Shown piece by piece: positions 1,546-59,179 of a stretch of DNA of 64,000 bases (position 1 is its first letter; every line of letters starts with the position of its first letter). The translations under genes were made by a program, and so were the position numbers. The stretch comes from a virus, in the IMG/VR virus record IMGVR_UViG_3300012936_000001, positions 1-64,000 of that record. One strand, 5' to 3'. Below the pieces are notes generated by a model that was given only the letters and a program-made list of their open reading frames with translations, was not told the DNA's origin and ran no database searches.

Positions 1546-2477
1546 AAATATGTATTATTGGCCCTGGAATCTTACCTATCCCTCCTAGTGGTTGGGGAGC
1601 TGTAGAAATTCTGATAGATGATTACAGAAAAAATTTAGAAAAATTAGGACATGAAGTTTTTATAGTAAATACAACAGTACGTCAACACATTATTGGACTT
1701 ACTAACGCTTTGAGCCCGGATTTTGTACACATACAGTATGATGACTTTGTACACATTATTCCATACATTGAGTGCAAAAACGTTGCTATAACTAGTCACT
1801 ACGGATACATAGAACAACCTGATAGGTGGGATTCTCATTATAGAAAAATATTTTGGGACTTTGTAAATTCAACCGCAAAGTTGTTTTGCTTGTCTCCCGG
1901 TATTGCGGAAGTGTACCGAAAAGCAAACGTGCCAGAAGATCGTCTTTTTGTCACGCCAAATGGCGTTAGAACAGATCTATTTAGATTTGCAGACAAACCA
2001 AAACATTCAAATCGATCTATGTATCTTGCAAAAATAGACTATAGAAAAAGACAACACATATATCAGAATATTCCCGATTTGTACTTCGCCGGCGGTTGCC
2101 ATGATGATAGATTCGATAAAAACAACCCAAGGTATCTAGGTCACTGGAGCAAAGAAAAGTTATATAACTCTTTGACAGAATACGCAAATCTTGTTTTGTT
2201 ATCAGATGGGGAAGCTCATCCTCTGGTATGCATGGAAGCATTAGCTGCTGGATTAGGGTTAGTGATTAGTGAATGTGCAGCTGCAAATCTTGATTTGTCT
2301 CTACCATTTATCGATGTGATTCCTGATAAGCGCTTGGATGATACGGCGTATGTCGAACAAATTATAAATTCCAATAAAACAACAAGCATCTCAATGCGTC
2401 ACGATATACGAAAATATGCTGAGACTTTTAGTTGGGAAACCACAGTAGCTGGTGCTTACACAAGTTCTATACAATAA
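1542..2477 (+). CDS. GT4-family (GT-B) glycosyltransferase
   Basis: IPPSGWGAVE N-terminal motif, TPNGV, and an EAHPLVCMEALAAGL E-x7-E motif. Confidence 0.85.
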   Translation: MKICIIGPGILPIPPSGWGAVEILIDDYRKNLEKLGHEVFIVNTTVRQHIIGLTNALSPDFVHIQYDDFVHIIPYIECKNVAITSHYGYIEQPDRWDSHYRKIFWDFVNSTAKLFCLSPGIAEVYRKANVPEDRLFVTPNGVRTDLFRFADKPKHSNRSMYLAKIDYRKRQHIYQNIPDLYFAGGCHDDRFDKNNPRYLGHWSKEKLYNSLTEYANLVLLSDGEAHPLVCMEALAAGLGLVISECAAANLDLSLPFIDVIPDKRLDDTAYVEQIINSNKTTSISMRHDIRKYAETFSWETTVAGAYTSSIQ

Positions 2478-2487
2478 AGGAAAAAAT

Positions 2488-3333
2488 ATGGAAGGATATA
2501 TCTTAATGGGCTTCGGAAAGAAGTACGTCGATGAATGTAGAATGGCAGTGGACATGATTAACGTTTTTGATAAAAAACGTCCAAAGGCTATTATGACAAA
2601 TAAGTCAGATGAGGAATACGCAAGGTCTCTTGGTGTTTTTGATGATATTGTCATCGTTGATTTTGCAAAAGAACCATTGCTAGCTGCAGAAAATAATCCG
2701 CATAATTTGTACTGTGTAATTCCAAGAATATTAATGCCAAAGTATCTGCCATACGAAAAAACAATAGCTCTTGATTCCGATATCGTAACAATCAGTGATC
2801 CTTCTCATGTTTGGGATTTTTTCAATGCGACGAACCAGGCTTTTTCTTGCTGTGGTTATGACTATGAAAGAGTCTGGCATTGGGGAAGAATAGATGAGAT
2901 TATTGCAAAGTTTGGAAAATCTATTCCATCGATTCATGGCGGAGTTTTATATTTTAACAAATCACATCCAGATATGGGCAAATTTTTAAATGACTGTATC
3001 GATATATGTAAAAAATATGATCATTACGGTTGTCACAGATTTTTTAGAGGCGGAATGACTGATGAAGTAATATTCGCAATGGCCATGGCAAATCAGAATT
3101 ACAAGCCTTTGCACTACACAAAATTCCCAATAGTAAGTTTTAATTTGCCCCCAACCATATCTTTACCGTTTTATGGACAGACTCGAACGGGACATTCGCT
3201 CGATACAGTTACAAAAACAGAAAAGCCTACAGTTTTTAACCACATCTTTTTCCATGAAGCGGGTGGAGAACATTATTTTGAGTGGTATCTAAAATTTTAT
3301 GAACAAGTAACTGGAAAAAAACGTGAAGTATAA
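2488..3333 (+). CDS. GT-A fold (GT8-like) glycosyltransferase
   Basis: PYEKTIALDSD (DXD), HGGVLYF and TDE motifs. AAGGA SD before ATG 2488. Confidence 0.65.
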   Translation: MEGYILMGFGKKYVDECRMAVDMINVFDKKRPKAIMTNKSDEEYARSLGVFDDIVIVDFAKEPLLAAENNPHNLYCVIPRILMPKYLPYEKTIALDSDIVTISDPSHVWDFFNATNQAFSCCGYDYERVWHWGRIDEIIAKFGKSIPSIHGGVLYFNKSHPDMGKFLNDCIDICKKYDHYGCHRFFRGGMTDEVIFAMAMANQNYKPLHYTKFPIVSFNLPPTISLPFYGQTRTGHSLDTVTKTEKPTVFNHIFFHEAGGEHYFEWYLKFYEQVTGKKREV

Positions 3334-3901
3334 CGGCATATACGATAAAGTTGTATTTGTGTCGAAACCTAGGTGCGCCAGTACTGCAATATTCAATTAC
3401 ATATATGGTTGGGACGACGATTCAATGGGAACAAAACCATTATATCATCGTTCTGCAAAATATATGCGAAGCGCACTCGATGCAGATTGGAGTAATTTGG
3501 TAACTTTTGCTGTTGTGCGTTGTCCTATACAGTTAGTCACATCATGGTATGTTCATCATAAATTTGGACGGCCGCACAAACAGACAGGCCAATATTATCC
3601 AAGCGATATAAACAGATGGATTACAGATGGTTGTCCTACTCATTGGCAAGTAGATGAAAAAAATCCACTTATTCAGCATGTCTGGACACACGAAGATAAT
3701 GCTCAAATAGTCGATTATATTATCAGACTAGAAAATCCAGACTGGAAAGAATTTGAGAAAAAGACAGGCATTAACATGGAAAGTCTTCCAATAAGCAATG
3801 CCTCGCCAAAAATAAGTACAAAAAATTGTGTCTTAAGTGAAGAAAGTATAGGTAAAATAAAAAACTATTTTGAAAAAGACTTTGTGCTGTTTGGTTATTA
3901 G
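3323..3901 (+). CDS. Sulfotransferase (Sulfotransfer_2-like)
   Basis: 5'-PSB-like VFVSKPRCASTAI, 3'-PB-like FAVVRCPxxxxxSWY, VDYIIRLEN, and C-terminal FEKDFVLFGY. Confidence 0.75.
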   Translation: MKYNGIYDKVVFVSKPRCASTAIFNYIYGWDDDSMGTKPLYHRSAKYMRSALDADWSNLVTFAVVRCPIQLVTSWYVHHKFGRPHKQTGQYYPSDINRWITDGCPTHWQVDEKNPLIQHVWTHEDNAQIVDYIIRLENPDWKEFEKKTGINMESLPISNASPKISTKNCVLSEESIGKIKNYFEKDFVLFGY

Positions 3902-3911
3902 TATACTACAA

Positions 3912-3940
3912 TTGTACATCGAATGTTTTTACATTATAAT
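3912..3940 (+). promoter_or_regulatory. Sigma70-type promoter TTGTAC-N17-TATAAT
   Basis: Near-consensus -35, 17-nt spacer and perfect -10 in the gap before the second sulfotransferase. Confidence 0.7.
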
Positions 3941-3964
3941 TTTATCATTAAAAAGAGATGGCAT

Positions 3965-4600
3965 ATGTTAATGAGCAAAGATGCAAAAATATTCAATGAT
4001 CAAGGATTTGTTTTCATTTCTATTCCGAAAACAGCAACAAATAGTATTTGGAACACAGTACTAAGTGACCCTTCTTACAAACCGTTTCAGCATGCTTATG
4101 CAAAAAAAATTAAGCCAATTATTGAAAATCATTATCCATCTAGATGGGAAAGTCTTTACAAATTTGCCTGTGTAAGACATCCATACAGTATGCTAGTGTC
4201 ATGGTACAAATATCATAAATATCACGATGACATTAGTCAAAACGTAAAAAATTTCTATAACTGCACGTTTGATGAGTGGGCTAATGACAGAAATTTTGTT
4301 ACTCATTGGGAATGGGATATACACAGAAATTGGAATCCATTATGGACAGGCGAAAATCCATTGCATCAATGGAAATGGGTATATGAAAACGATAAGTGCA
4401 TAGTTGATAAGATTATACGTTATGAAAATTTAGAAAAAGATCTTGCTGATGTCGGTAAAAAAATACCGCTAATCAGGTCTCTGCAGAAACTTAACTATAG
4501 TAACAATAAAAAAATAGTATTATCAAAAAGAACAAAACAAAAAATAAACGACATGTTTAATAAAGACTTTGTAATTTTTGACTTTAAGGTGGAAGAATAA
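3965..4600 (+). CDS. Sulfotransferase (Sulfotransfer_2-like), paralog of the previous gene
   Basis: FISIPKTATNSI, FACVRHPYSMLVSWY, VDKIIRYENL and FNKDFVIFDF. Start at 3965 or 3971, downstream of the promoter. Confidence 0.8.
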   Translation: MLMSKDAKIFNDQGFVFISIPKTATNSIWNTVLSDPSYKPFQHAYAKKIKPIIENHYPSRWESLYKFACVRHPYSMLVSWYKYHKYHDDISQNVKNFYNCTFDEWANDRNFVTHWEWDIHRNWNPLWTGENPLHQWKWVYENDKCIVDKIIRYENLEKDLADVGKKIPLIRSLQKLNYSNNKKIVLSKRTKQKINDMFNKDFVIFDFKVEE

Positions 4601-4601
4601 A

Positions 4602-5390
4602 ATGAAAACTATGCTTGTTACAGCGCTTTTTGATATAGACAGACAACACCGCGGAGATGGCAGAAGTATTGTAAATTATCTTGAATGGTTTGCAAAAACA
4701 CTTGAGCTTCAGTGCGACATGACTGTTTATACAGAAAAAAGATTCAAAAATTTTGTACTAGACCATAGAAAGAACAACGGTTACACAACAAAAATAGTTG
4801 TACAAAAATTTAATGAAATACCTTTTTATAAGAACAAGGCAACAATCGATGACATAATTAGTACTGCACAATATAAAAACAGAATGGCATACGCCGGCCG
4901 ATTAGAATGCATTTTAGGTAATTATAACGTCGTTATATACTCTAAGTACGGTTGGCTATCTAGGGCTGTAGATGAAAATCCACAACATGATTATTTTTTG
5001 TGGGTTGACGCTGGTATTAGTAGATTCTTCGAAGGTTTTGACACCAGTCTTCCATGGCCAAACAGAAAAGCACTTGATAATAGTAAGTTTCTTATACAAG
5101 CAAATACAGAACACTTTGAAAATTTGCATGACAAACTTAGCATTGCATCCCACATGTGGGATGGCAGATCTATATTAGTTGCTACTTTGTTTGGTGGAGG
5201 CCGCGACATAATAAAAAACATGGAATACTTAATAAACGATTATTGTGCAAATGTACTTTTTAAGGACAATTGCATAAATAATGAACAGATCTGTATGGGA
5301 CTCATATGGCTTGATAATCCGGATATATTCGATGTTAGGAAGTTTTCCGGAAAAACATGGCTTCCTCTTTTCTTGGAATTAAGTAAGTGA
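4602..5390 (+). CDS. HtrL/YibB (WlaTC)-like glycosyltransferase
   Basis: TMLVTALFDIDR, YLEWF, YNVVIYSK, FLWVDAG, LFGG and NNEQ pattern. Confidence 0.65.
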   Translation: MKTMLVTALFDIDRQHRGDGRSIVNYLEWFAKTLELQCDMTVYTEKRFKNFVLDHRKNNGYTTKIVVQKFNEIPFYKNKATIDDIISTAQYKNRMAYAGRLECILGNYNVVIYSKYGWLSRAVDENPQHDYFLWVDAGISRFFEGFDTSLPWPNRKALDNSKFLIQANTEHFENLHDKLSIASHMWDGRSILVATLFGGGRDIIKNMEYLINDYCANVLFKDNCINNEQICMGLIWLDNPDIFDVRKFSGKTWLPLFLELSK

Positions 5391-6319
5391 GAATTCTAGT
5401 CACCGGTGGCACAGGAATGGTTGGTTCTGCTTTTACAAGAATAGAGACAGAACACGAACTTTTGTTGTATGGATCAAACGCTTATGATTTGCGCAGAGAG
5501 CAAGATGTATGTGATATGATATACCGCGCACATCCAGACGCAATTATTCATCTCGCAGCAAAAGTTGGAGGAGTTAAGGGAAACACCGATTATGTTGCAG
5601 ACTATTTTTATGACAACATGATCATGAATCTGAACATACTGAATACTGCTCGTATATATAAGATTCCAAAAGTTCTATCTTTGCTTTCAACATGTATATA
5701 TCCTGATAATGTTGAATACCCTTTAACGGAAGATCAGATACATACCGGAGAACCTCATGCCAGCAGTTTTGGATATGCCTATGCAAAAAGAATGTTGGAA
5801 ATTCATTCAAGGGCAATAAGAAGACAATATGGAATAAATTATATTACGGCTGTTCCAAACAACATATATGGACCTAATGATAACTTTGATTTAGAAAACT
5901 CTCACGTAGTTCCTGCTATTATAAGAAAACTGTATGACAAAAAACATAATCAAAAAACTCCAGTTTTTTGGGGATCTGGTAAGTCATTGAGAGAATTTAC
6001 TTATTCTGAAGACATTGCTCGAGCATTATTAATGCTGCTAGAAAATTATGATGGCGAAGAACCTATCAATATTGGTAACCCAAATGAAATAGCAATATTT
6101 GATCTGGTCGGACTGATATCCAATGTTATGGGCGTTGACTTTCCGGATGAATCTTGGGATACTTCTATGCCAGAAGGCCAGTACAGAAAGCCGTCTTGTA
6201 ACAAAAAATTTATAAACATGTTTCCCGACTTTGAATATACGACCCTATCAGACGGGATTAGTATGACAATAGATTGGTTTAACAAAAATTACCCAGATGT
6301 TAGAGGTGTACGTGATTGA
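5387..6319 (+). CDS. GDP-4-keto-6-deoxymannose epimerase-reductase (Fcl/WcaG family; possibly ColC GDP-colitose synthase)
   Basis: GGTGMVG, HLAAKVGG, LSTCIYP, YAYAK, NIYGPNDNF, SHVVPA and WGSGKSLREF. Confidence 0.9.
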   Translation: MRILVTGGTGMVGSAFTRIETEHELLLYGSNAYDLRREQDVCDMIYRAHPDAIIHLAAKVGGVKGNTDYVADYFYDNMIMNLNILNTARIYKIPKVLSLLSTCIYPDNVEYPLTEDQIHTGEPHASSFGYAYAKRMLEIHSRAIRRQYGINYITAVPNNIYGPNDNFDLENSHVVPAIIRKLYDKKHNQKTPVFWGSGKSLREFTYSEDIARALLMLLENYDGEEPINIGNPNEIAIFDLVGLISNVMGVDFPDESWDTSMPEGQYRKPSCNKKFINMFPDFEYTTLSDGISMTIDWFNKNYPDVRGVRD

Positions 6320-7460
6320 CTTGGTAAAAGATACTATTACAAAGGAAGATCGAGAAGCTTTGGCAGGTTGGATTCTATCAGACCCTAAACTGACCAAGGG
6401 AGATCTTACTGTTCAATTTGAAGAAGAGTGGTCATCTTGGTTGGGAACAAAACATTCCGTATTCGTAAATTCTGGTTCCAGTGCAAATCTTCTAATGGCA
6501 TCAGTTCTGTTAGAGTCTGGAAAACTGCGCAATAAAAAAATAATTGTGCCGGCCGTTAGTTGGGCTACGACCGTCGCACCATTTATTCAGCTTGGATTTG
6601 AGCCAATAATGTGTGACTGCGACATGGCCAATCTAGGATTAGATGTAAATCATTTTGAAAGATTAGTCAAAGAGCATAATCCATCATCAGTTATAATTGT
6701 TCATGTTCTAGGTTATCCTAATAACATGAAAAAAATAATGGATACATGCAAAAAATACGATATTTTCCTTTTGGAAGATTGTTGTGAAGCTCATGGTTGT
6801 GAATATGACGGACAAAAAGTAGGAACATTTGGATGCATGTCTTCGTTTTCATTCTACTATGGTCACCACATGTCTACAATAGAAGGTGGTATGGTTTCTA
6901 TGAACAGCAAAGAATTTTTAGATCTGTCTCTTATGATAAGATCCCATGGGTGGATTCGAGACTTAGACGAATATTCCAAAAATTCGTGCATAGAAAATTA
7001 CGGCCTAGATGATTTCGAGGCCCTTTATTCTTTTCTTGTTCCTGGATATAATATTAGATCGACAGACCTAAATGCTTTTTTGGGTATTAGGCAACTGAAG
7101 AGATTAGATGAAACAATCGCCGCAAGAAGAAAAATTCTTTCTGTATACAGCAAAAATTTATCGGAGAAAATCTGGACACAGAGTTGCAAATTATCGAATC
7201 CTTCCCCTTTGGCTTTCGGTATTATATCAGCAGCAAAGGATAACATTGTCAAAAATTTACAAAAAGACAACATCGCATGTCGTCCCCTTATTTGTGGATC
7301 CATAGCAGAACATCCGTTTTGGTATATGAGATACGGCAGCGACAACGATTGTGAGAACGCAAAATCTGTGCATAAAAACGGTCTATATATTCCTTGTCAT
7401 CAATCTATGACTTTGGAAGAAACGGAATTTATTTGCAAAATAATACTGGAGAGTATATGA
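6312..7460 (+). CDS. colD: ColD-like GDP-4-keto-6-deoxy-D-mannose 3-dehydratase (DegT/DnrJ PLP family)
   Basis: FVNSGSSANL and LEDCCEAHG. SFYYGHHMSTIEGG has His in place of the PLP lysine. RSHGWIRDL is present and the Fe-S Cys cluster of RfbH/E1 is absent. GTG 6312 has a GAGG SD. Confidence 0.75.
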   Translation: MIDLVKDTITKEDREALAGWILSDPKLTKGDLTVQFEEEWSSWLGTKHSVFVNSGSSANLLMASVLLESGKLRNKKIIVPAVSWATTVAPFIQLGFEPIMCDCDMANLGLDVNHFERLVKEHNPSSVIIVHVLGYPNNMKKIMDTCKKYDIFLLEDCCEAHGCEYDGQKVGTFGCMSSFSFYYGHHMSTIEGGMVSMNSKEFLDLSLMIRSHGWIRDLDEYSKNSCIENYGLDDFEALYSFLVPGYNIRSTDLNAFLGIRQLKRLDETIAARRKILSVYSKNLSEKIWTQSCKLSNPSPLAFGIISAAKDNIVKNLQKDNIACRPLICGSIAEHPFWYMRYGSDNDCENAKSVHKNGLYIPCHQSMTLEETEFICKIILESI

Positions 7461-8356
7461 AATATTTAGTAACCGGTGGATGCGGATTTATCGGAAGCAA
7501 CTTGATAAAATCCCTTATTATGGACGACACCACGTTCGTTTATTGTGTTGACAACGAGTCGGGAGGAGATCAAAAATTAGATCATCCTAAAGTAAGATAT
7601 TTCAAAGAGGATATATCAGATTACAAAACGATGGATGTTATTTTCAATGCTCTACGGCCAGATTATGTTTTTCACATGGCCGCTGAGTCTCGTGTTGGAA
7701 CGTGTGAAGAGACCCCAGAAAAAGCAATTAACACTAACATACTAGGCACACTCAATGTATTGAGATTAGCAAAAAAATACGGTACAAAAAGAGTAATATA
7801 CTCTTCCACGTCTGCAACATACGGCAGAACAAAAGAACTTCCTACTTCCGAACATCAACCATCTGATAATTTGGGAGTGTATTCTGTGACAAAAATAGCG
7901 GGAGAAGATCTTTGCATGATGTATTATAAGACCCACGGACTGGATACGGTTGCTTTACGATACTTTAATGTTTTTGGAGAAGGCATGCCAGAAAAGGGAC
8001 AATATGCTCCGGTAATTGCAATATTTTTAAAGCAACGAAGAGAAGGCAAGGATCTCACGGTTGTAGGCGACGGAAGCCAAACAAGAGATTTTGTTTATGT
8101 AAAAGATGTAGTTAATGCCAATATTTTATCTGCATATGCTCCATCGATTCAGGTATCTGGAAAAATAATGAACGTTGGCACTTCTACCTCTTATAGTGTA
8201 CTGCAGATTGCAGAAGCTATATCTGATAAAATAAAATATATTCCACCTAGACCCGGAGAAAGTCCAAATACCCTTGCAGATTCAACGTTGCTCAGATCTG
8301 CCACTGGATGGAAATCAACTGTAGACGTCATCGATTGGATAAAGGATACCAAATGA
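7457..8356 (+). CDS. NAD-dependent nucleotide-sugar epimerase/dehydratase (extended SDR)
   Basis: GGCGFIG, YSSTSATYG, YSVTK (YxxxK), LRYFNVFG and GDGSQTRDFVYV. Confidence 0.9.
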   Translation: MKYLVTGGCGFIGSNLIKSLIMDDTTFVYCVDNESGGDQKLDHPKVRYFKEDISDYKTMDVIFNALRPDYVFHMAAESRVGTCEETPEKAINTNILGTLNVLRLAKKYGTKRVIYSSTSATYGRTKELPTSEHQPSDNLGVYSVTKIAGEDLCMMYYKTHGLDTVALRYFNVFGEGMPEKGQYAPVIAIFLKQRREGKDLTVVGDGSQTRDFVYVKDVVNANILSAYAPSIQVSGKIMNVGTSTSYSVLQIAEAISDKIKYIPPRPGESPNTLADSTLLRSATGWKSTVDVIDWIKDTK

Positions 8357-8535
8357 ATAAAGAAGACATAAATAAATTACTCAATATAAGAAACAAAATA
8401 ATCGGTTCTTATAATGCACTCGAACATAAAAACGAACCGCATGCAATTATTTCACAGAAAAAAGTCGCACAAGAATTTGAACTTTTGATTAAAATGATTG
8501 ATAATATACTAGAAGGAAAAGTTAAATTTACATAA
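8353..8535 (+). CDS. Small hypothetical protein
   Basis: ATGA-coupled, AAGGA SD, and fills the gap between the epimerase and gmd. Confidence 0.6.
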   Translation: MNKEDINKLLNIRNKIIGSYNALEHKNEPHAIISQKKVAQEFELLIKMIDNILEGKVKFT

Positions 8536-8544
8536 GGCTTTATA

Positions 8545-9576
8545 ATGAAAACTGCTCTAATTACCGGGATCACAGGTCAAGATGGATCTTATCTATGTGA
8601 TCTCCTACTTTCAAAAGGATATAGAGTCATTGGAATAAAAAGAAGGACCAGTATATTGTCAACCAATAGAATAGACAAAAATTTTACTGACCCAAATCTT
8701 ATAATTCACTATGGCTCCTTGCATGAATCAAGTTGGATGTATAGGCTATTGTCCGAGTATAAACCAGATGAAATATATAACTTGGCTGCGCAAAGCCACG
8801 TAAAAGTTTCTTTCGAGTGTCCGCTAGAGACAGTTGACATTGTTGCAAACGGTACCCTAAGGCTATTGGAGGCGGTCCGCCAAGTATGCCCAACTGCAAA
8901 ATTCTATCAGGCTTCTTCTTCAGAAATGTTTGGCGATAATCCAGAGAATCCTCAAAATGAATCAACCGTATTGATGCCAGCGTCTCCATATGCATGTGCA
9001 AAAGTCTTTTCACATAATCTAATAAGAAATTATAGAAAGTCGTATGGTATGTTCTGTTGCTCCGGAATATTATTTAATCATGAGTCTCCGAGAAGAGGTG
9101 AGACTTTTGTTACTAGGAAAATAACAACAGCGGCTGCAAGAATAAAACTCGGTCTACAAGACAAATTATACCTAGGTAACCTAGATGCCAAGCGTGATTG
9201 GGGTCACGCCAAGGATTATGTCAAAGCAATGTGGTTGATGTTGCAACAGGAGACCCCGGAAGATTTTGTAATTGCGACAGGAAAAACACATTCGGTAAGA
9301 GAATTTCTAGAACTGACTTTTAAGCATGCCGTGCTAGATATCGATAAATACGTAGAGATAGACTCTAGGTTATTTAGACCACATGAGGTACCGCTTTTGT
9401 TGGGAGACTCATCAAAGGCTAGAGAAAAATTAGGATGGGAACCTTATTACGATTTGCCAAAGCTAGTTACAGAAATGTATTCTTCAGATTTTAAGGAACA
9501 GTGTGCTGTTAAGATCGGACCAGATGGATTTGGTAGAATAGATCCTCTCGCTAGCTTGACAGAGCCAATATTTTAA
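8545..9576 (+). CDS. gmd: GDP-mannose 4,6-dehydratase
   Basis: [56 protein letters not shown] and [13 protein letters not shown]. Confidence 0.97.
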
Positions 9577-9618
9577 CATAAAGACACACTGATGTATGAT
9601 TATCAACAAGAGGTGAGA

Positions 9619-10461
9619 ATGAATGATTTTCCTACCGGGAAACCCCATGTTTCCTATTCAGAAATAAAAAATTGGAAAGAATGTTCATATAGGCACAAAC
9701 TACTCTACGTTGATGGTCTACAAGAATATAACCCAAGTCCTTATGCTGATTTCGGTACAGCGCTACATAATGCAATAGAATTGTTTTTGAAAACAAAAAA
9801 AATGGATATAGAAAAGTGTTTAAGCGAGATTGACAATGCTTGGAAGACCAATCTCTATGAAGGGCCAGAATACTTAGAAAAGATGAAAGATCACTCTTGG
9901 TACAAGAATGAACCTGTGGAAACATGGAAATCATACGCAAAAACTATTCTAGAAAGTTTTCCAAGCTGGATAGATAATGAGTTTCTTGAGTGGGAACTAG
10001 TTGACGCGGAACATGAGTTATATGAAAAGATTCAAGGCGAATCTATATCATTCAAGGGTTTTGTTGATTGTATCATAAAAGCGAAGTCAAAAAGAGGAAA
10101 AGACCTTCTGTGGATTATCGATTGGAAAACAACTGGTAAATACGGATGGATTCCGAAGAAAAAAAGAGATTTCTTGACTACAGCTCAAGTTGGATTTTAC
10201 AAAAAATATATTTCAAAGAAACTAGAAATAGAAATGAAAGATATTCGGTGCGCTTACGTCTTCTTAAAAAGAGGCGCATTACCAGAAAAATGTATCGAAT
10301 CCTTTACAGTTTCTGTTGGACCTAAATTCCTAGAAAAAATAGACAAGTTATTGAATTCTATGATAAAATCGGTCAGAAAAGGCATGGCTCTTAAAAACTA
10401 TAGTTCGTGTAAGTTCTGTCCATTTACAAATACGGAGCATTGCAGTGGCAAAGGATGGTAA
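9619..10461 (+). CDS. PD-(D/E)XK RecB/Cas4-like exonuclease with a probable Fe-S cluster
   Basis: SYSE..WKEC, FGTALH, E..GFVD..IIDWKT, QxxxY and C-terminal CKFCPFTNTEHC. GAGG SD before ATG 9619. Confidence 0.82.
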   Translation: MNDFPTGKPHVSYSEIKNWKECSYRHKLLYVDGLQEYNPSPYADFGTALHNAIELFLKTKKMDIEKCLSEIDNAWKTNLYEGPEYLEKMKDHSWYKNEPVETWKSYAKTILESFPSWIDNEFLEWELVDAEHELYEKIQGESISFKGFVDCIIKAKSKRGKDLLWIIDWKTTGKYGWIPKKKRDFLTTAQVGFYKKYISKKLEIEMKDIRCAYVFLKRGALPEKCIESFTVSVGPKFLEKIDKLLNSMIKSVRKGMALKNYSSCKFCPFTNTEHCSGKGW

Positions 10462-11701
10462 GAAAAAAATAATAGTTTTGTCCGATCACGCGTTGAGTAC
10501 ATCAGGCGTCGGCACACAAACAAGACATCTTATAAATGGCCTTTTAGAGAAAGGGTGCTGGACTTTTAGGCAGCTCGGCGCAGCTGTCAAGCATGATAAC
10601 TATGATACAGTCGTAGTTAATCCAGACTTTATCATAAAGCCAGTTGATGGTTTTGGAAACCCGGAAATGATTAGAGTCATTCTTGCAACCGAAAAGCCGG
10701 ATGCCATACTGATCTTTACTGATCCCAGGTTTTTTACCTGGTTGTTTGAGATAGAAGACGAAATACACCAGACATGTCCTATATTTTGGTGGCATGTATG
10801 GGACAATAAACCATATCCAGATTTCAATGATCGATACTATAAAGCAACTGACTTGATTAATTGCCACTCTCATCACACGTATATGCAAATAGTAGAAAAA
10901 TATCCCAAAAAGACAAATTTTATTCCCCATGCACTACCAGATAATGTTTTTTTCGAAATCGATGAACAGCAAAAGAAAAACATTAAGAGACAAATCTTAG
11001 GTTCTGACAGAATAGATCACTTTGTCGGCTTCTGGATGAATAGAAATGCAAAAAGAAAAAGGCCAGGCGATTTGTTGTGGGCTTGGAAGATTTTCATAGA
11101 CAAATTAGAGGAATCTACAGGAAATAAAAAAGCGACGTTACTTCTTCATACTGATCCGCTAGACCGAGAAGGTCCTAATCTATATTCTATAATTGAAAAA
11201 CTGGAAATCAAAGATAGTGTTGTTTTCTCAAAAGAAAGAGTCTCTTTCGATGTCGTAAATGCAATGCATAATATTGCTGATTTTACAATAAATGTTTCTA
11301 ATGCAGAAGGATTTGGTCTTTCCACTCTGGAAGCCATGCAGACTGGTACTCCGATTATTGCCCCTAAAACAGGCGGTCAAACAAGACAGGTTGTGGATCA
11401 TAGAGATGGTTCTGAAAATGGATTTGCACTACCAATAGAGCTTCAGACGCTAGTTGGAAGCCAAAATGTGCCTTATATTTTTGAAGATTATTGCTCTACC
11501 GGTACAATCGCAAATGCAATTTGGTCTATGTATGAGCTTGGTCCGGACGGAAGAAAGCAACTAGGTCAAAAAGCAAAAGAGTATGTCAGATCTGAATTTT
11601 CTTACCAAAAAACTATTGATCTTTGGCATGAAACTATGCTAGAAAAAATAAAAAATTGGAAAAAATCTTACGAAAGATATATTATTAAGGAAATAAAATG
11701 A
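10445..11701 (+). CDS. GT4-family glycosyltransferase
   Basis: LSDHALSTSGVG, NRNAKRKRPG, EGFGLSTLEAMQTGTPII. Confidence 0.88.
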   Translation: MAKDGKKKIIVLSDHALSTSGVGTQTRHLINGLLEKGCWTFRQLGAAVKHDNYDTVVVNPDFIIKPVDGFGNPEMIRVILATEKPDAILIFTDPRFFTWLFEIEDEIHQTCPIFWWHVWDNKPYPDFNDRYYKATDLINCHSHHTYMQIVEKYPKKTNFIPHALPDNVFFEIDEQQKKNIKRQILGSDRIDHFVGFWMNRNAKRKRPGDLLWAWKIFIDKLEESTGNKKATLLLHTDPLDREGPNLYSIIEKLEIKDSVVFSKERVSFDVVNAMHNIADFTINVSNAEGFGLSTLEAMQTGTPIIAPKTGGQTRQVVDHRDGSENGFALPIELQTLVGSQNVPYIFEDYCSTGTIANAIWSMYELGPDGRKQLGQKAKEYVRSEFSYQKTIDLWHETMLEKIKNWKKSYERYIIKEIK

Positions 11702-12855
11702 AAAATGTTTTTATTAGAGGGCCATTGCTCACTCAATCTGGGTACGGTGTTCATTCACGGCAAATTTTTAAGTGGGCGAAATCAAAAGGCTATAATATCA
11801 CCGTACAATTACTTCCATGGGGAATTACGCCATGGTATACTTCCGGAGAAGAACTAGATGGTCTTATTGGCGAAATTATGATGTGTTCAAAGCCGCCTGT
11901 TCAAAAGCCTGATTTGTCCATCCAGATTCAGTTACCGCATGAGTGGGATCCAAGTATAGGAATAAAAAATATCGGCGTCACAGCCGGAATTGAGGCAACT
12001 TCTTGTAATCTGGAATGGATCTCTGCATGCGATAATATGGATCTAGTAATTACACCATCTAAGTTTGCGCAAGACACTCTAGTACAGTCGGGATTAAGTC
12101 CTGAAAAAATAACAGTCATCCCGGAGTCTTTTCCGCAGTGTTTTTTTGAAAAAGAATTACCTGAATTTGAGCTAAATTTGCCTACCGATTTTAATTTTTT
12201 AATTCTAGGACAAATTACTGGAGATCCAGATTGCGATAGAAAAAGAACTATAGAAACTATTGCAAATTTTCTTAATGCATTTAGAGGAGACCCAACAGTT
12301 GGTCTAATTGTAAAAACAAATATGGGCAAAAATTGTTCCATAGATCGCGAAATTACCGAACATTCATTAAGAAATTTTATAAAAACACAAAATCTAAGCA
12401 AAATAGATCCAAAGGTGTATTTATTACATGGTTATCTCCATGAGCGAGAGATCTGTGCGTTATACCGGAGCAAGAATATCAAAGCCCTTATTAGTGGAAC
12501 TAGAGGAGAAGGCTTTGGACTGCCTTTATTGGAGGCGGCTGCCTGTGATTTACCGGTCATCGCAACCGGTTATTCGGCACACACCGAGTTTCTAAATTTA
12601 GGAAAATGGATAAAAATCAATTCGAGTTTGCAACAAATCCCAGATCGAAAAGCAGATGGAAAAATATGGGTAAAAGGCTCAAAATGGGCCAATATAGACT
12701 CCAATGATTTTATTGACAAGATAAAAAAGTTTAAGAAAAAAGGCACATCCATTCCTAACGAATGGGCAAAAAATTTAGGAAGTAAAATCAGAGACAAATA
12801 CTCTGAAAAATCTATTTTTTGTATCTATGATCAAAAATTAGGTGTTTTTTTATGA
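11698..12855 (+). CDS. GT4-family glycosyltransferase
   Basis: GPLLTQSGYGVHSR, DRK, TRGEGFGLPLLEAAACDLPVIAT. Confidence 0.88.
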   Translation: MKNVFIRGPLLTQSGYGVHSRQIFKWAKSKGYNITVQLLPWGITPWYTSGEELDGLIGEIMMCSKPPVQKPDLSIQIQLPHEWDPSIGIKNIGVTAGIEATSCNLEWISACDNMDLVITPSKFAQDTLVQSGLSPEKITVIPESFPQCFFEKELPEFELNLPTDFNFLILGQITGDPDCDRKRTIETIANFLNAFRGDPTVGLIVKTNMGKNCSIDREITEHSLRNFIKTQNLSKIDPKVYLLHGYLHEREICALYRSKNIKALISGTRGEGFGLPLLEAAACDLPVIATGYSAHTEFLNLGKWIKINSSLQQIPDRKADGKIWVKGSKWANIDSNDFIDKIKKFKKKGTSIPNEWAKNLGSKIRDKYSEKSIFCIYDQKLGVFL

Positions 12856-16046: not shown

Positions 16047-16538
16047 ATGGCAAAGGTCAGAGAAAGAAAAGTATATTCTTTTAAGTCTGTTGGGGAAAAA
16101 CAGGAAGAATTCGAAGCAAAAATAAAAGGCAGGCTTGCAACAGATAAGCCTCCTATAGGAATTAAGACTCCGTTAGAGCTTGGCGAACAATCTTTGTTCA
16201 AAATGCACACAGACTTAGGTAAAAATATTTCTGATAACCTAAGAAACCTGATTCTTACAAATCATGGCGAAAGATTAGGCATGTATGACTTTGGTGCAAA
16301 CCTACTTCCTTTGTCTATGGAATTTGGAACAGAAAATTTTGATTCTGCTGCCATCCAGAGAATATCCCGAGCCGTTCGGAGATACATGCCATTTATAGAT
16401 TTGGGTACTTTTGAGTCTTTTTCTGAAAGGACCGATAATAAAGTTGTTGCGAAAGCAGGTATTCGGATAACGTATACTATACCCAACATAGATAACAATC
16501 CAAGAATGTTGGAAGTAATAATATATTCCGGAGCATAA
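16047..16538 (+). CDS. Baseplate wedge protein, gp25/GpW-like
   Basis: IGIKTPL and NLRNLILTNHGERLGMYDFGANL...YMPFI. Confidence 0.85.
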   Translation: MAKVRERKVYSFKSVGEKQEEFEAKIKGRLATDKPPIGIKTPLELGEQSLFKMHTDLGKNISDNLRNLILTNHGERLGMYDFGANLLPLSMEFGTENFDSAAIQRISRAVRRYMPFIDLGTFESFSERTDNKVVAKAGIRITYTIPNIDNNPRMLEVIIYSGA

Positions 16539-16539
16539 A

Positions 16540-18348
16540 ATGAAATTAAAGGCAAAAAAACAAAGAAAGTATCTGAATAGAGATTTTGACGGATTTCGAA
16601 AAGAGTTATTGGATTATGCAAGAATATATTTTCCTGATAAGATTCAAGATTTTTCCGAAGCGTCAGTGGGTGGTATGCTCTTAGACCTTGCTTCTTATGT
16701 GGGTGATAATTTATCTTATTATTTAGATCATCAATTCCATGAACTAAATCCGCTAACAGCGGTAGAATCACAGAATATCGAAATGCATGCAAAAAATTCT
16801 GGAGTAAAAATATCTGGAGCAGCCCCATCTGTTGTTGATGTTGACTTTTACATTGAAGTAGGAACGACAACAGTCAACAATAAGATCTTGCCTGATAGAA
16901 ATAGCTTACCAAGAATTCTCAAGAACACCGAACTGTTGGCCGATAACGGAACAACATTCAGTCTTATTGAGAATATAGACTTTGCTGAAACAGATTCCGC
17001 CGGCAACCTTTTAGCAAAAGTAAAACCTATTTCTCAGCCTGGATCGCAAGCAACGTCATTTGTTTTGGTTAGGCCCGGAAAGTGCATATCCGGAAAAATA
17101 ACAACCGAAACATTTACAGTCGGAAATTTTTCTCCTTTTTTGACTGTAAATTTGTCTAATCCGGACGTTTCTTCTATTCTTTCTATATCTGATACTCGAG
17201 GTAACCAATACTATGAAGTAGAACACTTAGGGCAAGACACCGTATTTAGGAAAGTATATAACCCATCTCAGCCAGAACATTCTCTCGAGATCATTTCGGC
17301 ACCATATAGATTTACCGCTGCCACTAGCCTGAATACAAGAACAACCTCGATTACTTTTGGAGCAGGAAACGAAATGTCTCTAGAAGATACAAATATTGCG
17401 GATCCTTCTCAATTGGCTATCCCGTTATATGGAAAATCAACATTTTCTACGTTTTCTCAAGACCCACTAAAATTATTGAGCTCCAGAACTTTAGGTGTAG
17501 CTCCAGAAAACACTAATATAAGCGTTGTATATCGCTACGGAGGAGGCGCCAGCCATAATGTTTCCTCAAGGAACATAAATACTGTCTCATCGTTAGAAAT
17601 AAATTTTCCAGACACAGCCTCTCCACAAGAGGCAATAAATATAAGAGGTTCTCTTGCTGTAAGAAATGAATTAGAGGCTCAGGGAGGAGCTGCTGCTCCC
17701 ACGATCGACGAAATTAAATCTTTTATACCTGTTGCAAAATCATCTCAAAACAGAATTGTCTCAAAAGAAGATCTTCTTTCCAGGATCTATACACTACCAA
17801 ATGAATTTGGCCGCGTTTTTAGAGCTTCGGTTGCACCAAACCCGAATAATCTTTTATCGTCTGTTCTTTATATAATTTCTAGAAATGCTTCCGGAAAATT
17901 GGTGCAGTGTTCGGACATATTAAAATCAAATATATCTACTTATCTAAACGAATATAGACTGATAGGCGACAGTATGGATATATTGGATGTTGCTGTTATA
18001 AATTACAGAGTCAAAATAACAATTGTTGCTCAACTTGGTGCAAATAAGCAAAATTTGCAAATAGAGTTAATCGGCAGAATAAGAGAAATAATTAAGATAC
18101 AAAATTATCAAATTGGCCAACCAATAAATGAATCAGATTTTTTATCTGAAGTACTTAGCGTTCCGGGAGTGCTGTCTTTATCTAGTATCTCTTTTGAAAA
18201 CGTGTATGGGACCATAATTAATTCAACATATAGTGATTATTCTGTAGAATTAGATAATCGATATGTAAATGGTAATTTTTTCGCTCAACCTAATGAAATA
18301 TTCGAGTGTAGATTTCCCGAAACAGACATTTCAGTAGAAGTTATATAA
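16540..18348 (+). CDS. Baseplate wedge protein, T4 gp6 / baseplate J-like
   Basis: YLNRDFDGFRKEL...DFSEASVGGMLLDLASYVGDNLSYYLD, ITFGAG, YRYGGG, QNRIVSKED. Confidence 0.88.
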   Translation: MKLKAKKQRKYLNRDFDGFRKELLDYARIYFPDKIQDFSEASVGGMLLDLASYVGDNLSYYLDHQFHELNPLTAVESQNIEMHAKNSGVKISGAAPSVVDVDFYIEVGTTTVNNKILPDRNSLPRILKNTELLADNGTTFSLIENIDFAETDSAGNLLAKVKPISQPGSQATSFVLVRPGKCISGKITTETFTVGNFSPFLTVNLSNPDVSSILSISDTRGNQYYEVEHLGQDTVFRKVYNPSQPEHSLEIISAPYRFTAATSLNTRTTSITFGAGNEMSLEDTNIADPSQLAIPLYGKSTFSTFSQDPLKLLSSRTLGVAPENTNISVVYRYGGGASHNVSSRNINTVSSLEINFPDTASPQEAINIRGSLAVRNELEAQGGAAAPTIDEIKSFIPVAKSSQNRIVSKEDLLSRIYTLPNEFGRVFRASVAPNPNNLLSSVLYIISRNASGKLVQCSDILKSNISTYLNEYRLIGDSMDILDVAVINYRVKITIVAQLGANKQNLQIELIGRIREIIKIQNYQIGQPINESDFLSEVLSVPGVLSLSSISFENVYGTIINSTYSDYSVELDNRYVNGNFFAQPNEIFECRFPETDISVEVI

Positions 18349-51572: not shown

Positions 51573-52508
51573 ATGCAAGATAAGATAGATTTTTTAACAA
51601 AAGTATTTGGTAGAAGCAAGGTGCAAAACAACGGCATCGAGCTTATGGTTCCCTGCCCGGTCTGTAAAAGTGCCGACAAGATGAAGATGAATATTCGTCT
51701 AGATAACGGATTATATCATTGTTGGGTCTGTAATACAAAAGGCAGAAGTGTAGCTAGGCTTATAAAACACAAAAGACCAGACCTCGTTTCTACATGGTTT
51801 GACAAATATCAGTCTAGCTTTGCTTACAATAATTTGTCTGAATTGCAGCAAATACAAGAGCCAATAGTCATACCAGAAGACTTCGGTCTTATCATGGAAT
51901 CACTCAAAGATCCGGACGCAAAGGCTATACGTTCCTATGCAAATTCACGCGGCATAAATGATGACCTACTGTGGCGATATAGAATGGGCTATTCATCAGA
52001 ATGGCGACTCAAAAGACGGCTGATCATACCTTCATTTGACGATGAGGGAAACTTGAATTACTGGACAGGGAGAACAATAGATCCGGATAATTCTTATCGA
52101 TACTTCAACTCTCCTGGAAACAAGAAACAGATCATATTCAATGAGATCGATATAGACTGGACCAAGCCTATCTATCTGGTAGAGGGTCCTTTGGATCTGG
52201 TCAAGTGTGTCAAGCTTAATGCCACCTGCTTATTAGGTTCTTCCCTTACGGAAGACTCTCTCTTATTTTATAAGCTAGTACTATTTGCCGATGAGATTAT
52301 CCTTTGCATGGATAAGGACGCTCGAGCCAAGCAGGACAAGATAGCAGAACTTTTGATGTCTTACGATAAAGAGATATGGTGGGTCGATCCTCCCCAGGGA
52401 GACAAAGACTGGGGTGATATGAGCCCGCAAAAAGTATATGATGCCATGCAACAAAAAAACAAATACGGTCGTGATACAAAACTTTTAAGAATGATTTCGG
52501 AATTTTAG
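51573..52508 (+). CDS. DNA primase (DnaG-type, Zn finger + TOPRIM)
   Basis: CPVC...HCWVC zinc finger, RLIIP, GRTI, LVEGPLD, CMDKDA and KDWGDM. Confidence 0.88.
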   Translation: MQDKIDFLTKVFGRSKVQNNGIELMVPCPVCKSADKMKMNIRLDNGLYHCWVCNTKGRSVARLIKHKRPDLVSTWFDKYQSSFAYNNLSELQQIQEPIVIPEDFGLIMESLKDPDAKAIRSYANSRGINDDLLWRYRMGYSSEWRLKRRLIIPSFDDEGNLNYWTGRTIDPDNSYRYFNSPGNKKQIIFNEIDIDWTKPIYLVEGPLDLVKCVKLNATCLLGSSLTEDSLLFYKLVLFADEIILCMDKDARAKQDKIAELLMSYDKEIWWVDPPQGDKDWGDMSPQKVYDAMQQKNKYGRDTKLLRMISEF

Positions 52509-57598: not shown

Positions 57599-59179
57599 AT
57601 GGCAGTAACTACAAAGCAAAGACAAATAAAAGAAATAATTAAGTGTGGAAAAGATCCGTCTTACTTCTTTAATAGATATTGCAAAATACAGCATCCAATC
57701 AAAGGTGCCATTCCTTTTAAGACATATCAGTTTCAAGATGATTGCGTCAAAGACTTCGAAGAACATCGGTTCAACATAGTCTTAAAGTCTAGACAGTTAG
57801 GCCTGTCAACGATTTCTGCTGCATACAGTGCTTGGCTGGCTATTTTTCACAAAGACAAAAACATACTTGTTATTGCAACGAAGCTAGCTGTAGCACAAAA
57901 TTTTATAAGAAAGGTAAAATTTCTTATAAAGTCCATGCCTAATTGGCTTCTGCTTCCAGAGATAGTAAATAATAACAAACAGGCTCTAGAGTTTTCGAAT
58001 GGATCGACGATAAAAGCCATTCCAACGTCGGAAGATGCAGGTCGTTCAGAAGCTTTGACACTTCTAATTGTCGACGAGGCTGCTTTTGTAAGAAATTTTG
58101 ATACATTGTGGACTGGTTTGTATCCAACCCTATCAACTGGTGGTCGAGCAATTATTCTGTCTACGCCGAATGGAGTCGGCGGGCAATATTATGATCTGTG
58201 GATGCAGGCAGTTTCAAAAGAGAATATATTCAATCCAATTAAATTGGCTTGGGACGTTCACCCAGAAAGAAATGATGAATGGTATGAAAAAGAAACCAAA
58301 AATATGTCTAGACAACAGATTGCGCAAGAATTATTGTGTGACTTTCAAGCTTCTGGCGACACATTCTTGCAAGTTGAGGATATAGAGTACATCAGAAATT
58401 GGATTCGGCCACCAACAGACAAATGGGGTCCTGATATGAACGTCTGGGTTTGGGATTATCCTCTATCTTCCAAGAAATACGTCATATCAGCTGATGTTTC
58501 GCGGGGCGATGCTAGCGATTATTCCACATTTTACGTAATAGACACAGAATCTTCTTCTGTTGCTGCAGAATATAGAGGAAAATTACCTCCAGATAAATTT
58601 GCGCAGGTCTTAGCAGAAGCTGGAAGAAGATATAACGAAGCATTAATATGCCCAGAAAATAATTCTTATGGATACGCGGTAATTATGAAATTATCTGAGA
58701 TGAATTATAGAAATCTTTGGTTTCAAAACGAAAAAGACCGATATTCTTACATGTACGGCAATAAAGAATTAGGAAAGATAGGATTTCAAACAAATGCAAA
58801 GACTAGAAATCAAATTCTTACAAAACTAGAAGAAGTTTTACGTACAAAGCAAGTAATGATAAAATCAAGTCGACTATACGAAGAACTTAAGACTTTTGTT
58901 TGGAAAAATGGAAAGGCGCAAGCTCAAAAAGGGCAAAACGATGACCTTATTATGGCTCTTGCAATTGGAGTATGGTTATATGACACTAGTCCTCAACTAA
59001 ATAAACACTCATACGATATCAATAAAGCAATGTTACAAGCCTTTTCTGTAAATTCAAACAAATTAAAAGATTCAGTTATTGATCCAAATCCAAAATATGA
59101 TAAAGATGGAAATAACGAAAGAAAAATATGGGGAAAGAACAATCCTTATTACTCGAATTTTAAGTGGGTAATAGAGTAG
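57599..59179 (+). CDS. terL: Terminase large subunit (T4 gp17-like)
   Basis: KCGKDPSYF, LKSRQLGLST (Walker A), LLIVDEAAF (Walker B), STPNG, ADVSRG..DYS and DDLIMALAI nuclease motif. Confidence 0.95.
   Translation: MAVTTKQRQIKEIIKCGKDPSYFFNRYCKIQHPIKGAIPFKTYQFQDDCVKDFEEHRFNIVLKSRQLGLSTISAAYSAWLAIFHKDKNILVIATKLAVAQNFIRKVKFLIKSMPNWLLLPEIVNNNKQALEFSNGSTIKAIPTSEDAGRSEALTLLIVDEAAFVRNFDTLWTGLYPTLSTGGRAIILSTPNGVGGQYYDLWMQAVSKENIFNPIKLAWDVHPERNDEWYEKETKNMSRQQIAQELLCDFQASGDTFLQVEDIEYIRNWIRPPTDKWGPDMNVWVWDYPLSSKKYVISADVSRGDASDYSTFYVIDTESSSVAAEYRGKLPPDKFAQVLAEAGRRYNEALICPENNSYGYAVIMKLSEMNYRNLWFQNEKDRYSYMYGNKELGKIGFQTNAKTRNQILTKLEEVLRTKQVMIKSSRLYEELKTFVWKNGKAQAQKGQNDDLIMALAIGVWLYDTSPQLNKHSYDINKAMLQAFSVNSNKLKDSVIDPNPKYDKDGNNERKIWGKNNPYYSNFKWVIE

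Follow-up and report, generated by a model that had tools for sequence, protein, structure and literature searches.

A ColD-type dehydratase gene beside Fcl-like and Gmd genes in a marine T4-like phage: a candidate route to GDP-L-colitose

Introduction

Can a lytic-type phage divert the guanosine diphosphate (GDP)-mannose of its host into colitose, or would it make only fucose? The question is raised by a run of sugar-nucleotide genes at positions 5387–9576 of the stretch of DNA analysed here (the window), which covers the first 64 kb of a linear virus record of 167 kb in the IMG/VR database (IMGVR_UViG_3300012936_000001). The source is an uncultured marine, T4-like, tailed phage of lytic type. 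3,6-Dideoxyhexoses, to which colitose belongs, are strongly antigenic sugars of O-antigens and capsules, and from their place in surface glycans we infer that they are relevant to phage receptors.

The original prediction read this interval as a complete pathway made up of Gmd, ColD and an Fcl homologue that may be ColC. All three genes are real, and a fourth, GalE-like gene (7457–8356) had been overlooked. We give a probability of roughly 0.6 to the reading that the gene run redirects host GDP-mannose to GDP-L-colitose, and probably to GDP-L-fucose as well. The chemistry of this pathway is known from bacteria; what is new is a phage-borne, widespread and mis-annotated gene set. Full-text literature searches returned no report of colitose biosynthesis genes in a phage. 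The run holds the following features.

5387 to 6319, + strand: Fcl-family (GMER-type) extended short-chain dehydrogenase/reductase (SDR), P0002, 310 aa, putative 5-(3,5-)epimerase/4-reductase (Pfam Epimerase, 171 bits)
6297 to 7460, + strand: predicted ColD-family GDP-4-keto-6-deoxy-D-mannose 3-dehydratase dependent on pyridoxal 5'-phosphate/pyridoxamine 5'-phosphate (PLP/PMP), P0001, 387 aa (Pfam PF01041 (DegT), 242 bits)
6864 to 6866, + strand: His190 codon of P0001, the catalytic His replacing the PLP-binding Lys (alignment to ColD His188)
7457 to 8356, + strand: GalE/WbgU/WbpP-like NAD-dependent UDP-hexose (or UDP-HexNAc) 4-epimerase, P0003 (PDB matches)
8545 to 9576, + strand: GDP-mannose 4,6-dehydratase (Gmd), P0004, 343 aa (TIGR01472)

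The P0002 gene overlaps the ColD-like gene by 23 nt, and the start codon of P0003 overlaps the stop codon of the ColD-like gene as ATGA. Gmd follows the ColD-like gene at a distance of ~1.1 kb, also on the + strand. The cassette has only one sizeable intergenic space, the 188 nt that separate Gmd from the GalE-like gene (8357–8544), and an open reading frame of 75 aa without family match (8308–8535) covers part of it. Operon structure was judged from gene overlaps only, because a promoter and terminator scan of the region gave results no better than those for shuffled sequence.

The ColD-like protein P0001

Whether the phage could deoxygenate a GDP-sugar at C3 depends first of all on P0001. 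This protein contains SFYYGHHMSTIEGG, and the DNA at 6840–6899 encodes SSFSFYYGHHMSTIEGG, with both His codons exactly at 6864–6869, where they had been placed; the RSHGWIRDL motif reported for the DegT-family protein is present as well. In alignments with PDB sequences, the first His (His190) falls on the catalytic His188 of E. coli ColD, and the ColD mutants H188K and H188N in the PDB alter exactly this column. Gly189-His190 is invariant in 30 homologues of P0001, and all ColD-like genes of 80 viral loci keep the catalytic His, followed by H, T, Q, A or I. The His at the site of the PLP Lys, on which the original prediction had built its case, is not a chance feature.

His-type 3-dehydratases of the E1 and SpnQ kind require a [2Fe-2S] cysteine motif and a reductase partner, ColD-type enzymes deoxygenate C3 by a glutamate-recycled mechanism, and wild-type ColD has no transaminase activity (PMC8987622). 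Alignment with E1-like proteins bears out the claim that P0001 lacks the Fe-S cysteine motif of RfbH/E1: the WGRxCxC...C insert seen in the E1-like comparators is deleted in P0001, its homologues, gp225 of Synechococcus phage ACG-2014f and E. coli ColD. The comparators were E1-like 'PAHH' genes of the fetched loci; the RfbH model gave no full-scoring E1 in control genomes. P0001 itself scores 215 bits against this model, whose cut-off is 423.

The best PDB sequence matches of P0001 are four entries of E. coli O55 ColD (WbdK), led by 2gms (E = 5e-65, 223 bits), followed at lower scores by E1 (137 bits) and by perosamine synthase and other aminotransferases (at most 117 bits). Phylogeny was inferred with IQ-TREE from 64 DegT-family proteins and rooted on Lys-type enzymes including E. 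coli ArnB; the clade values given here, all starred, are those of the Shimodaira–Hasegawa-like approximate likelihood-ratio test (SH-aLRT). All His-type proteins form one clade (99) apart from the Lys-type aminotransferases. Within it, a clade with a value of 98 joins E. coli O55 ColD, ACG-2014f gp225 and a large 'G-H-x' (GHx) subclade containing P0001, and the E1-like clade (99) is its sister. P0001 does not cluster with Lys-type enzymes, because the His-type clade is split from them and P0001 lies inside the ColD clade, where it groups with E. coli O55 ColD. An AlphaFold2 model of P0001 from 30 homologues (predicted local distance difference test, 94.2) retrieved only ColD chains among its top 10 Foldseek matches in the PDB (template modelling (TM) score 0.88–0.91), with aminotransferases and E1 behind. 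Taken together, the catalytic His, the lack of the Fe-S insert, the tree, the fold and the linkage to Gmd give good support to the prediction that P0001 is a ColD-type GDP-4-keto-6-deoxymannose 3-dehydratase; the nucleotide part of its substrate we take from the genomic context, a canonical Gmd.

Gmd, the GalE-like protein and substrate supply

P0004 scores 448.3 bits against TIGR01472, above the equivalog cut-off of 415, and matches Gmd entries of the PDB at E = 1e-112 to 1e-93. P0003 has as its best PDB match a Thermotoga UDP-glucose 4-epimerase (4zrm, E = 5e-47), with WbgU and WbpP next, and its homologues occur alike in viral loci with and without ColD. It probably feeds UDP-Gal or UDP-GalNAc to transferases and stands outside the GDP pathway. 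A role for P0003 as GDP-sugar 4-reductase was considered and rejected, since its best matches are UDP-hexose 4-epimerases.

Only three SDR genes (those of P0002, P0003 and P0004) were found in the 167-kb record, which holds no heptose-pathway gene and no NTP_transferase or other sugar nucleotidyltransferase; ManB and ManC are absent from the window. Phage-encoded supply of GDP-mannose was rejected on the lack of an NTP_transferase, and GDP-mannose must therefore come from the host.

A third SDR, ~32–36% identical to P0003, stands right after Gmd in many ColD-free viral Gmd-Fcl modules (loci L170, L182, L183, L186, L188, L195–L197, L205, L213, L223 and L230; at ~9.9–10.9 kb in each locus). It is possibly a second GDP-sugar reductase or epimerase.

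The Fcl-like protein P0002 and the ColC question

Is the enzyme that would finish the pathway a ColC? P0002 scores 239.9 bits against the NCBIfam GDP-L-fucose synthase model NF047922, below the equivalog cut-off of 500, and its best PDB matches are GDP-L-fucose synthases of eukaryote (human) type (231 bits), with E. coli GMER at 150 bits. Its Ser101, Cys103, Tyr130, Lys134 and His173 align with Ser107, Cys109, Tyr136, Lys140 and His179 of E. coli GMER, which we take to be the Ser/Tyr/Lys triad and the Cys/His epimerisation pair. All five residues are invariant across the clade of P0002, and because they are kept, an L-configured product is expected.

Reference ColC and ColD sequences were taken from the O-antigen region of E. 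coli O55:H7 CB9615. P0002 is 32% identical to E. coli ColC and 33% to E. coli Fcl, which share 39% with each other. Its identity ceiling is 94% among metagenomic homologues, 63% among IMG/VR contigs and 52% for a prokaryote species genome (a Halobacteriovorax metagenome-assembled genome), and the Fcl-like clade to which it belongs is essentially viral. In a 204-row FastTree, P0002 falls in a starred clade of 62 rows, of which 52 are unlinked to ColD (within 8 kb, Gmd is present and ColD absent) and 8 linked. E. coli ColC is placed among ordinary Fcl sequences, next to E. coli Fcl, in a starred clade other than that of P0002. On a 64-row IQ-TREE, the label 'ColD-linked' has to change 15 times, and starred branches impose at least 8 of these changes; that all ColD-linked Fcl-like proteins form one clade is rejected by the approximately unbiased (AU) test (p = 2e-38). 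In these trees, ColD-linked Fcl-like proteins are polyphyletic and dispersed across the Fcl tree. At the locus whose Fcl-like gene is nearest to P0002 (L075, 63–64%), the ColD-like gene is only 42% identical to P0001, and at another (L179) the ColD-like gene reaches 61% and the Fcl-like gene 57%; judged by such identities, the histories of the two genes are discordant.

Orthology of P0002 with the characterised ColC (E. coli O55 WbdJ) was thus not found by identity, trees or AU test. Clade placement, the AU test and the lack of a residue signature (see below) lead us to regard P0002 as a viral Fcl-type enzyme with a ColD neighbour, not as a member of a ColC lineage. The suggestion that the 'fcl' may be ColC accordingly stands as a plausible function and falls as a statement of orthology. 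It had further been proposed that the phage makes colitose rather than, or as well as, fucose; given the mostly ColD-free Fcl clade and the polyphyly, 'as well as' is the better reading. The usual setting of the clade of P0002 is a module with Gmd only, for fucose, and GDP-L-fucose is therefore probably made too.

Occurrence in viruses and current annotation

How unusual is such a cassette? A single-protein viral scan with P0001 returned no matches; an alignment-based scan gave them, and relatives of P0001 that carry the G-H motif are encoded on at least 586 IMG/VR contigs. Homologues of P0001 of ~385 aa and 50–64% identity number in the thousands in the protein database. Linkage was counted at the 62 ColD-anchored viral loci that extend 3.5 kb or more beyond the anchor gene in both directions, a neighbour being a gene within 3 kb. 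Gmd and an Fcl-like gene were both found at 30 loci, Gmd only at 6, an Fcl-like gene only at 9 and neither at 17; one or both thus stand beside the ColD-like gene at 45/62 loci, and Gmd at 36/62. The apparent unusualness of the cassette did not survive these counts, to which the cultured phage ACG-2014f is to be added.

That automated annotation would call the gene an aminotransferase is confirmed by RefSeq, phage and Joint Genome Institute (JGI) labels. In RefSeq, O55 ColD itself is a 'DegT/DnrJ/EryC1/StrS family aminotransferase' and ColC a 'GDP-L-fucose synthase family protein'; JGI labels many P0001 homologues as CDP-sugar E1; and in ACG-2014f, gp225 is annotated 'aminotransferase', and gp223 and gp224 as epimerases. 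The predicted cassette is common in phages and unrecognised under current labels.

On some viral contigs, Fcl-like and Gmd-like genes have as their direct neighbour an E1-like dehydratase of His type, which contains SFYPAHHITMGEGG and the CxC...C Fe-S insert (L236:6844-9844, L237, L245:8001-11159, L017:3777-4943, L233 and L235). These contigs may hold a second, Fe-S-dependent phage module for a 3-deoxy sugar, possibly acting on a GDP-sugar.

The proposed pathway and its alternatives

The first two steps have strong homology support. Gmd would oxidise and dehydrate GDP-mannose to GDP-4-keto-6-deoxy-D-mannose. P0001, as its PMP form, would then make a Schiff base with the 4-keto sugar, like ColD; a proton would be abstracted by His190, the 3-OH would leave, and hydrolysis would yield GDP-4-keto-3,6-dideoxy-D-mannose and ammonia, with PMP recharged by L-glutamate and with need of neither an Fe-S centre nor a reductase partner. 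In the third step, P0002 alone would epimerise C5 and reduce C4 of the 3-deoxy intermediate, giving GDP-L-colitose. It would also turn the Gmd product that escapes ColD into GDP-L-fucose, so that the phage probably makes a mixture of colitose and fucose whose ratio is set by ColD flux. Finally, the GT11, GT6, three GT4 and two sulfotransferase-like enzymes may assemble, during infection, a glycan that bears colitose or fucose and is possibly sulfated, with the host envelope or the phage as its target. As for its evolution, ColD would have been gained by or lost from viral Gmd-Fcl modules many times, without a specialised ColC lineage.

Colitose synthesis is plausible, resting on the assumption that P0002 accepts the 3-deoxy intermediate. 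This assumption is favoured because ColD repeatedly stands beside Fcl-like proteins of many clades, because E. coli ColC is itself a diverged Fcl, and because C4-reductases and C3/C5-epimerases of GDP-heptose pathways that are not 3-deoxy pathways accepted 3-deoxy substrates (PMC10440746).

On the other hand, several observations count against the making of colitose by this phage. P0001 is only ~34–36% identical to E. coli ColD, from which a deep branch separates it, and has Gly at the position of ColD Ser187; biochemically characterised members are lacking from both the GHx ColD subclade and the viral Fcl clade. In the Fcl-anchored set, which comprises the 80 viral loci closest to P0002, Gmd occurs without ColD (within 8 kb) at 66 loci and with it at only 9. 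A search for residues that distinguish ColD-linked from unlinked members of the P0002 clade yielded no convincing signature, the best column being Met80 (6/9 versus 5/44). With relatives mostly lacking ColD and no signature, the sequence gives no sign that P0002 accepts a 3-deoxy substrate. Moreover, the record is estimated to be ~62% complete, and family searches of the window found no flippase or polymerase (Wzx, Wzy).

The alternative that fares best, improbable in our view though far from negligible, is that fucose is the real end product. P0002 would then be an ordinary GDP-L-fucose synthase, and the ColD product would be a dead end or would be finished by P0003 or a host reductase into another, perhaps D-configured, 3,6-dideoxyhexose. 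The dominance of Gmd-Fcl pairs without ColD in the viral clade of P0002, the missing ColC-like residue signature and the translational coupling of a second SDR (P0003) to the ColD-like gene would all fit. However, P0003 resembles a UDP-hexose 4-epimerase rather than a 4-ketoreductase, and its homologues also occur where ColD is missing; the recurrence of ColD beside Fcl-like genes of many clades is hard to explain if its product is unusable; and tolerance of 3-deoxy substrates is documented in related GDP-sugar enzymes (PMC10440746).

It is quite unlikely that P0001 deoxygenates some other nucleotide sugar, such as GDP-6-deoxy-4-keto-heptose (as in Campylobacter jejuni HS:5) or a cytidine diphosphate (CDP)- or deoxythymidine diphosphate (dTDP)-sugar. 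ColD-type C3-dehydratases that act on GDP-heptose do exist (PMC10440746), CDP-sugar E1 is the JGI label of homologues, and the GHx subclade is without a characterised member. Against this stand the neighbouring canonical Gmd, above its equivalog cut-off, and the Gmd linkage of most viral loci; the lack in the 167-kb record of any heptose-pathway gene, nucleotidyltransferase or further SDR; and the absence of the E1/SpnQ-type Fe-S motif from P0001. That P0001 is a sugar aminotransferase after all, for example one like GDP-perosamine synthase, as automated annotation and its DegT Pfam family and aminotransferase-shared fold would have it, is highly improbable in view of the His invariant across its clade at the Schiff-base Lys site, the separation from Lys-type enzymes with a value of 99, and the lack of transaminase activity in wild-type ColD (PMC8987622).

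The reading of the cassette as a source of colitose can be extended to a more general scheme, which we advance tentatively and with low confidence. Aquatic phages would have no dedicated ColC; any Fcl-type synthase would finish the ColD product, so that gain or loss of colD, at least 8 times, would switch a module between fucose and colitose or mixed output. In the present phage, the GT11/GT6/GT4/sulfotransferase line would build a sulfated, blood-group-like glycan capped with colitose, located on the virion or the infected cell.

Phage setting and neighbouring genes

The remaining sugar genes of the window are as follows.

65 to 823, + strand: GT11 glycosyltransferase (alpha-1,2-fucosyl/colitosyl-transferase family; Pfam Glyco_transf_11, 1e-24)
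655 to 1545, true start probably near 820, + strand: GT6 glycosyltransferase (alpha-1,3-Gal/GalNAc-transferase family; Pfam Glyco_transf_6, 3e-19)
1542 to 2477, + strand: GT4 glycosyltransferase
2452 to 3333, + strand: phrog_1903 protein
3323 to 3901 and 3923 to 4600, + strand: two sulfotransferase-like genes in tandem (phrog_3347 Galactose-3-O-sulfotransferase; Pfam Sulfotransfer_2)
4578 to 5390, + strand: HtrL/YibB-family protein
9592 to 10461, + strand: PD-(D/E)XK / Cas4-like exonuclease, separating Gmd from the downstream GT4 pair
10445 to 12855, + strand: two GT4 glycosyltransferases

The phage nature of the record is apparent from a gp25-like protein and baseplate wedge (16047–18348), primase (51573–52508), TerL (57599–59179) and portal (59213–61237). 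The nearest relatives of TerL (~42%) are the Flavobacterium 'immuto' phages and Microcystis phage Mel-JY01; the 'immuto' phages (42%) lack the cassette and have only a distant DegT protein (24% identity). Megablast of the region against phage records returned no matches. The first 13 kb of the window form one + strand run of sugar genes, with a GC content of 34–38% throughout. The contig is linear and incomplete and opens with the sugar cluster, yet that this cluster is host DNA brought in by misassembly or as a prophage flank is scarcely credible: its strand and GC content equal those of the adjoining tail and baseplate genes, a phage-type exonuclease is embedded in it, the cassette recurs in the IMG/VR contigs and in a cultured Synechococcus phage, and P0002 is closer to viral contigs (up to 63%) than to any prokaryote species genome (at most 52%). 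The exonuclease sits mid-cassette, with Gmd on one side and the GT4 pair on the other.

A full-length alignment of the window GT11 with the GT11 that E. coli O55 carries in its colitose O-antigen cluster gives 29% identity (E = 2e-27); the E. coli protein bears the RefSeq name alpha-1,2-fucosyltransferase and is presumably the colitosyltransferase WbgN. The window GT11 is a candidate user of the GDP-sugar. Homologues of GT11 were found in 27/80 ColD-anchored viral loci; among Fcl-anchored loci, they occur in 4/9 with ColD versus 11/71 without. Overall, their frequency in viral loci roughly doubles where ColD is present, and the association of GT11 with ColD is modest. GT11 and GT6 are adjacent at the start of the contig (65–1545). 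Such a pair of enzymes makes blood-group epitopes, first H and then those of A/B type. On these family assignments, and given a donor of colitose or fucose, the phage could make a Col/Fuc-alpha1,2-Gal core with an alpha1,3 sugar. GT6 homologues are nearly absent from 240 related loci (1 match). Given the two sulfotransferase-like genes, the glycan product may be sulfated.

Significance

If lytic aquatic phages make GDP-colitose, they may repaint the surface of the infected cell, for example so as to block superinfection or to limit the loss of progeny on debris; alternatively, they may glycosylate their own particles. Surveys of auxiliary genes probably misread the cassette as a fucose, amino-sugar or CDP-sugar pathway, because the labels 'aminotransferase' and 'epimerase' hide it. 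From the dispersed occurrence of ColD beside Fcl proteins of unrelated lineages follows the prediction that ordinary GDP-fucose synthases act as colitose synthases; for laboratory work, Synechococcus phage ACG-2014f and its host WH7803 are a possible system.

Comparison with known systems

The colitose pathway of E. coli O55:H7 and O111 consists of Gmd, ColD (WbdK; PDB 2gms, 2r0t, 3b8x and 3gr9) and ColC (WbdJ), and all three enzyme families are present in the phage. The E. coli O55 cluster and the phage run share the order of a colC-like gene followed by an overlapping colD-like gene, and both include a GT11. E. coli ColD and P0001 are alike in having His for the PLP Lys, no Fe-S motif and the same fold (TM ~0.9), whereas P0001 differs in its low identity, its separate GHx subclade and its Gly for Ser187. 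P0002 differs from E. coli ColC in its identity of 32%, in belonging to another Fcl clade and in being nearest to eukaryote-type GDP-fucose synthases. Unlike the O55 cluster, the phage window is without ManB, ManC, Wzx and Wzy, and the carrier is a lytic-type T4-like phage.

Among viruses, the closest systems are the Gmd + Fcl (GDP-L-fucose) modules of aquatic phages, such as that of Synechococcus phage S-SKS1 with its 'GDP-L-fucose synthase'. P0002 and P0004 are members of the viral clades of these modules, in which identities reach 63% and 74%, respectively. Compared with these, the present phage adds a ColD-family gene beside the Fcl-like gene, an arrangement shared by only 9/80 of the closest viral loci, as mentioned above. 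The cultured cyanomyovirus ACG-2014f encodes Gmd, an Fcl-like protein and a ColD-like protein in one run (gp223–gp225), followed by glycosyltransferases and a sulfotransferase. Its Gmd (gp223) is 55% and its His-type gp225, with the motif FSFYFGHHMTTIEGG, 39% identical to the window proteins. In contrast to their counterparts in the window, gp224 belongs with Fcl and ColC of E. coli, and gp225 is not a member of the GHx clade.

E1 (AscC/RfbH, the CDP-6-deoxy-L-threo-D-glycero-4-hexulose 3-dehydrase) and SpnQ are also His-type 3-dehydratases of DegT fold, in the sister clade, but P0001 is without their [2Fe-2S] insert. The GDP-3,6-dideoxy-heptose pathway of C. jejuni HS:5/HS:11 likewise has a PLP/glutamate C3-dehydratase acting after a GDP-sugar 4,6-dehydratase (PMC10440746). 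It has a heptose substrate and a separate C5-epimerase and C4-reductase, in contrast to the phage, which pairs a canonical Gmd with one Fcl-type enzyme predicted to be bifunctional.

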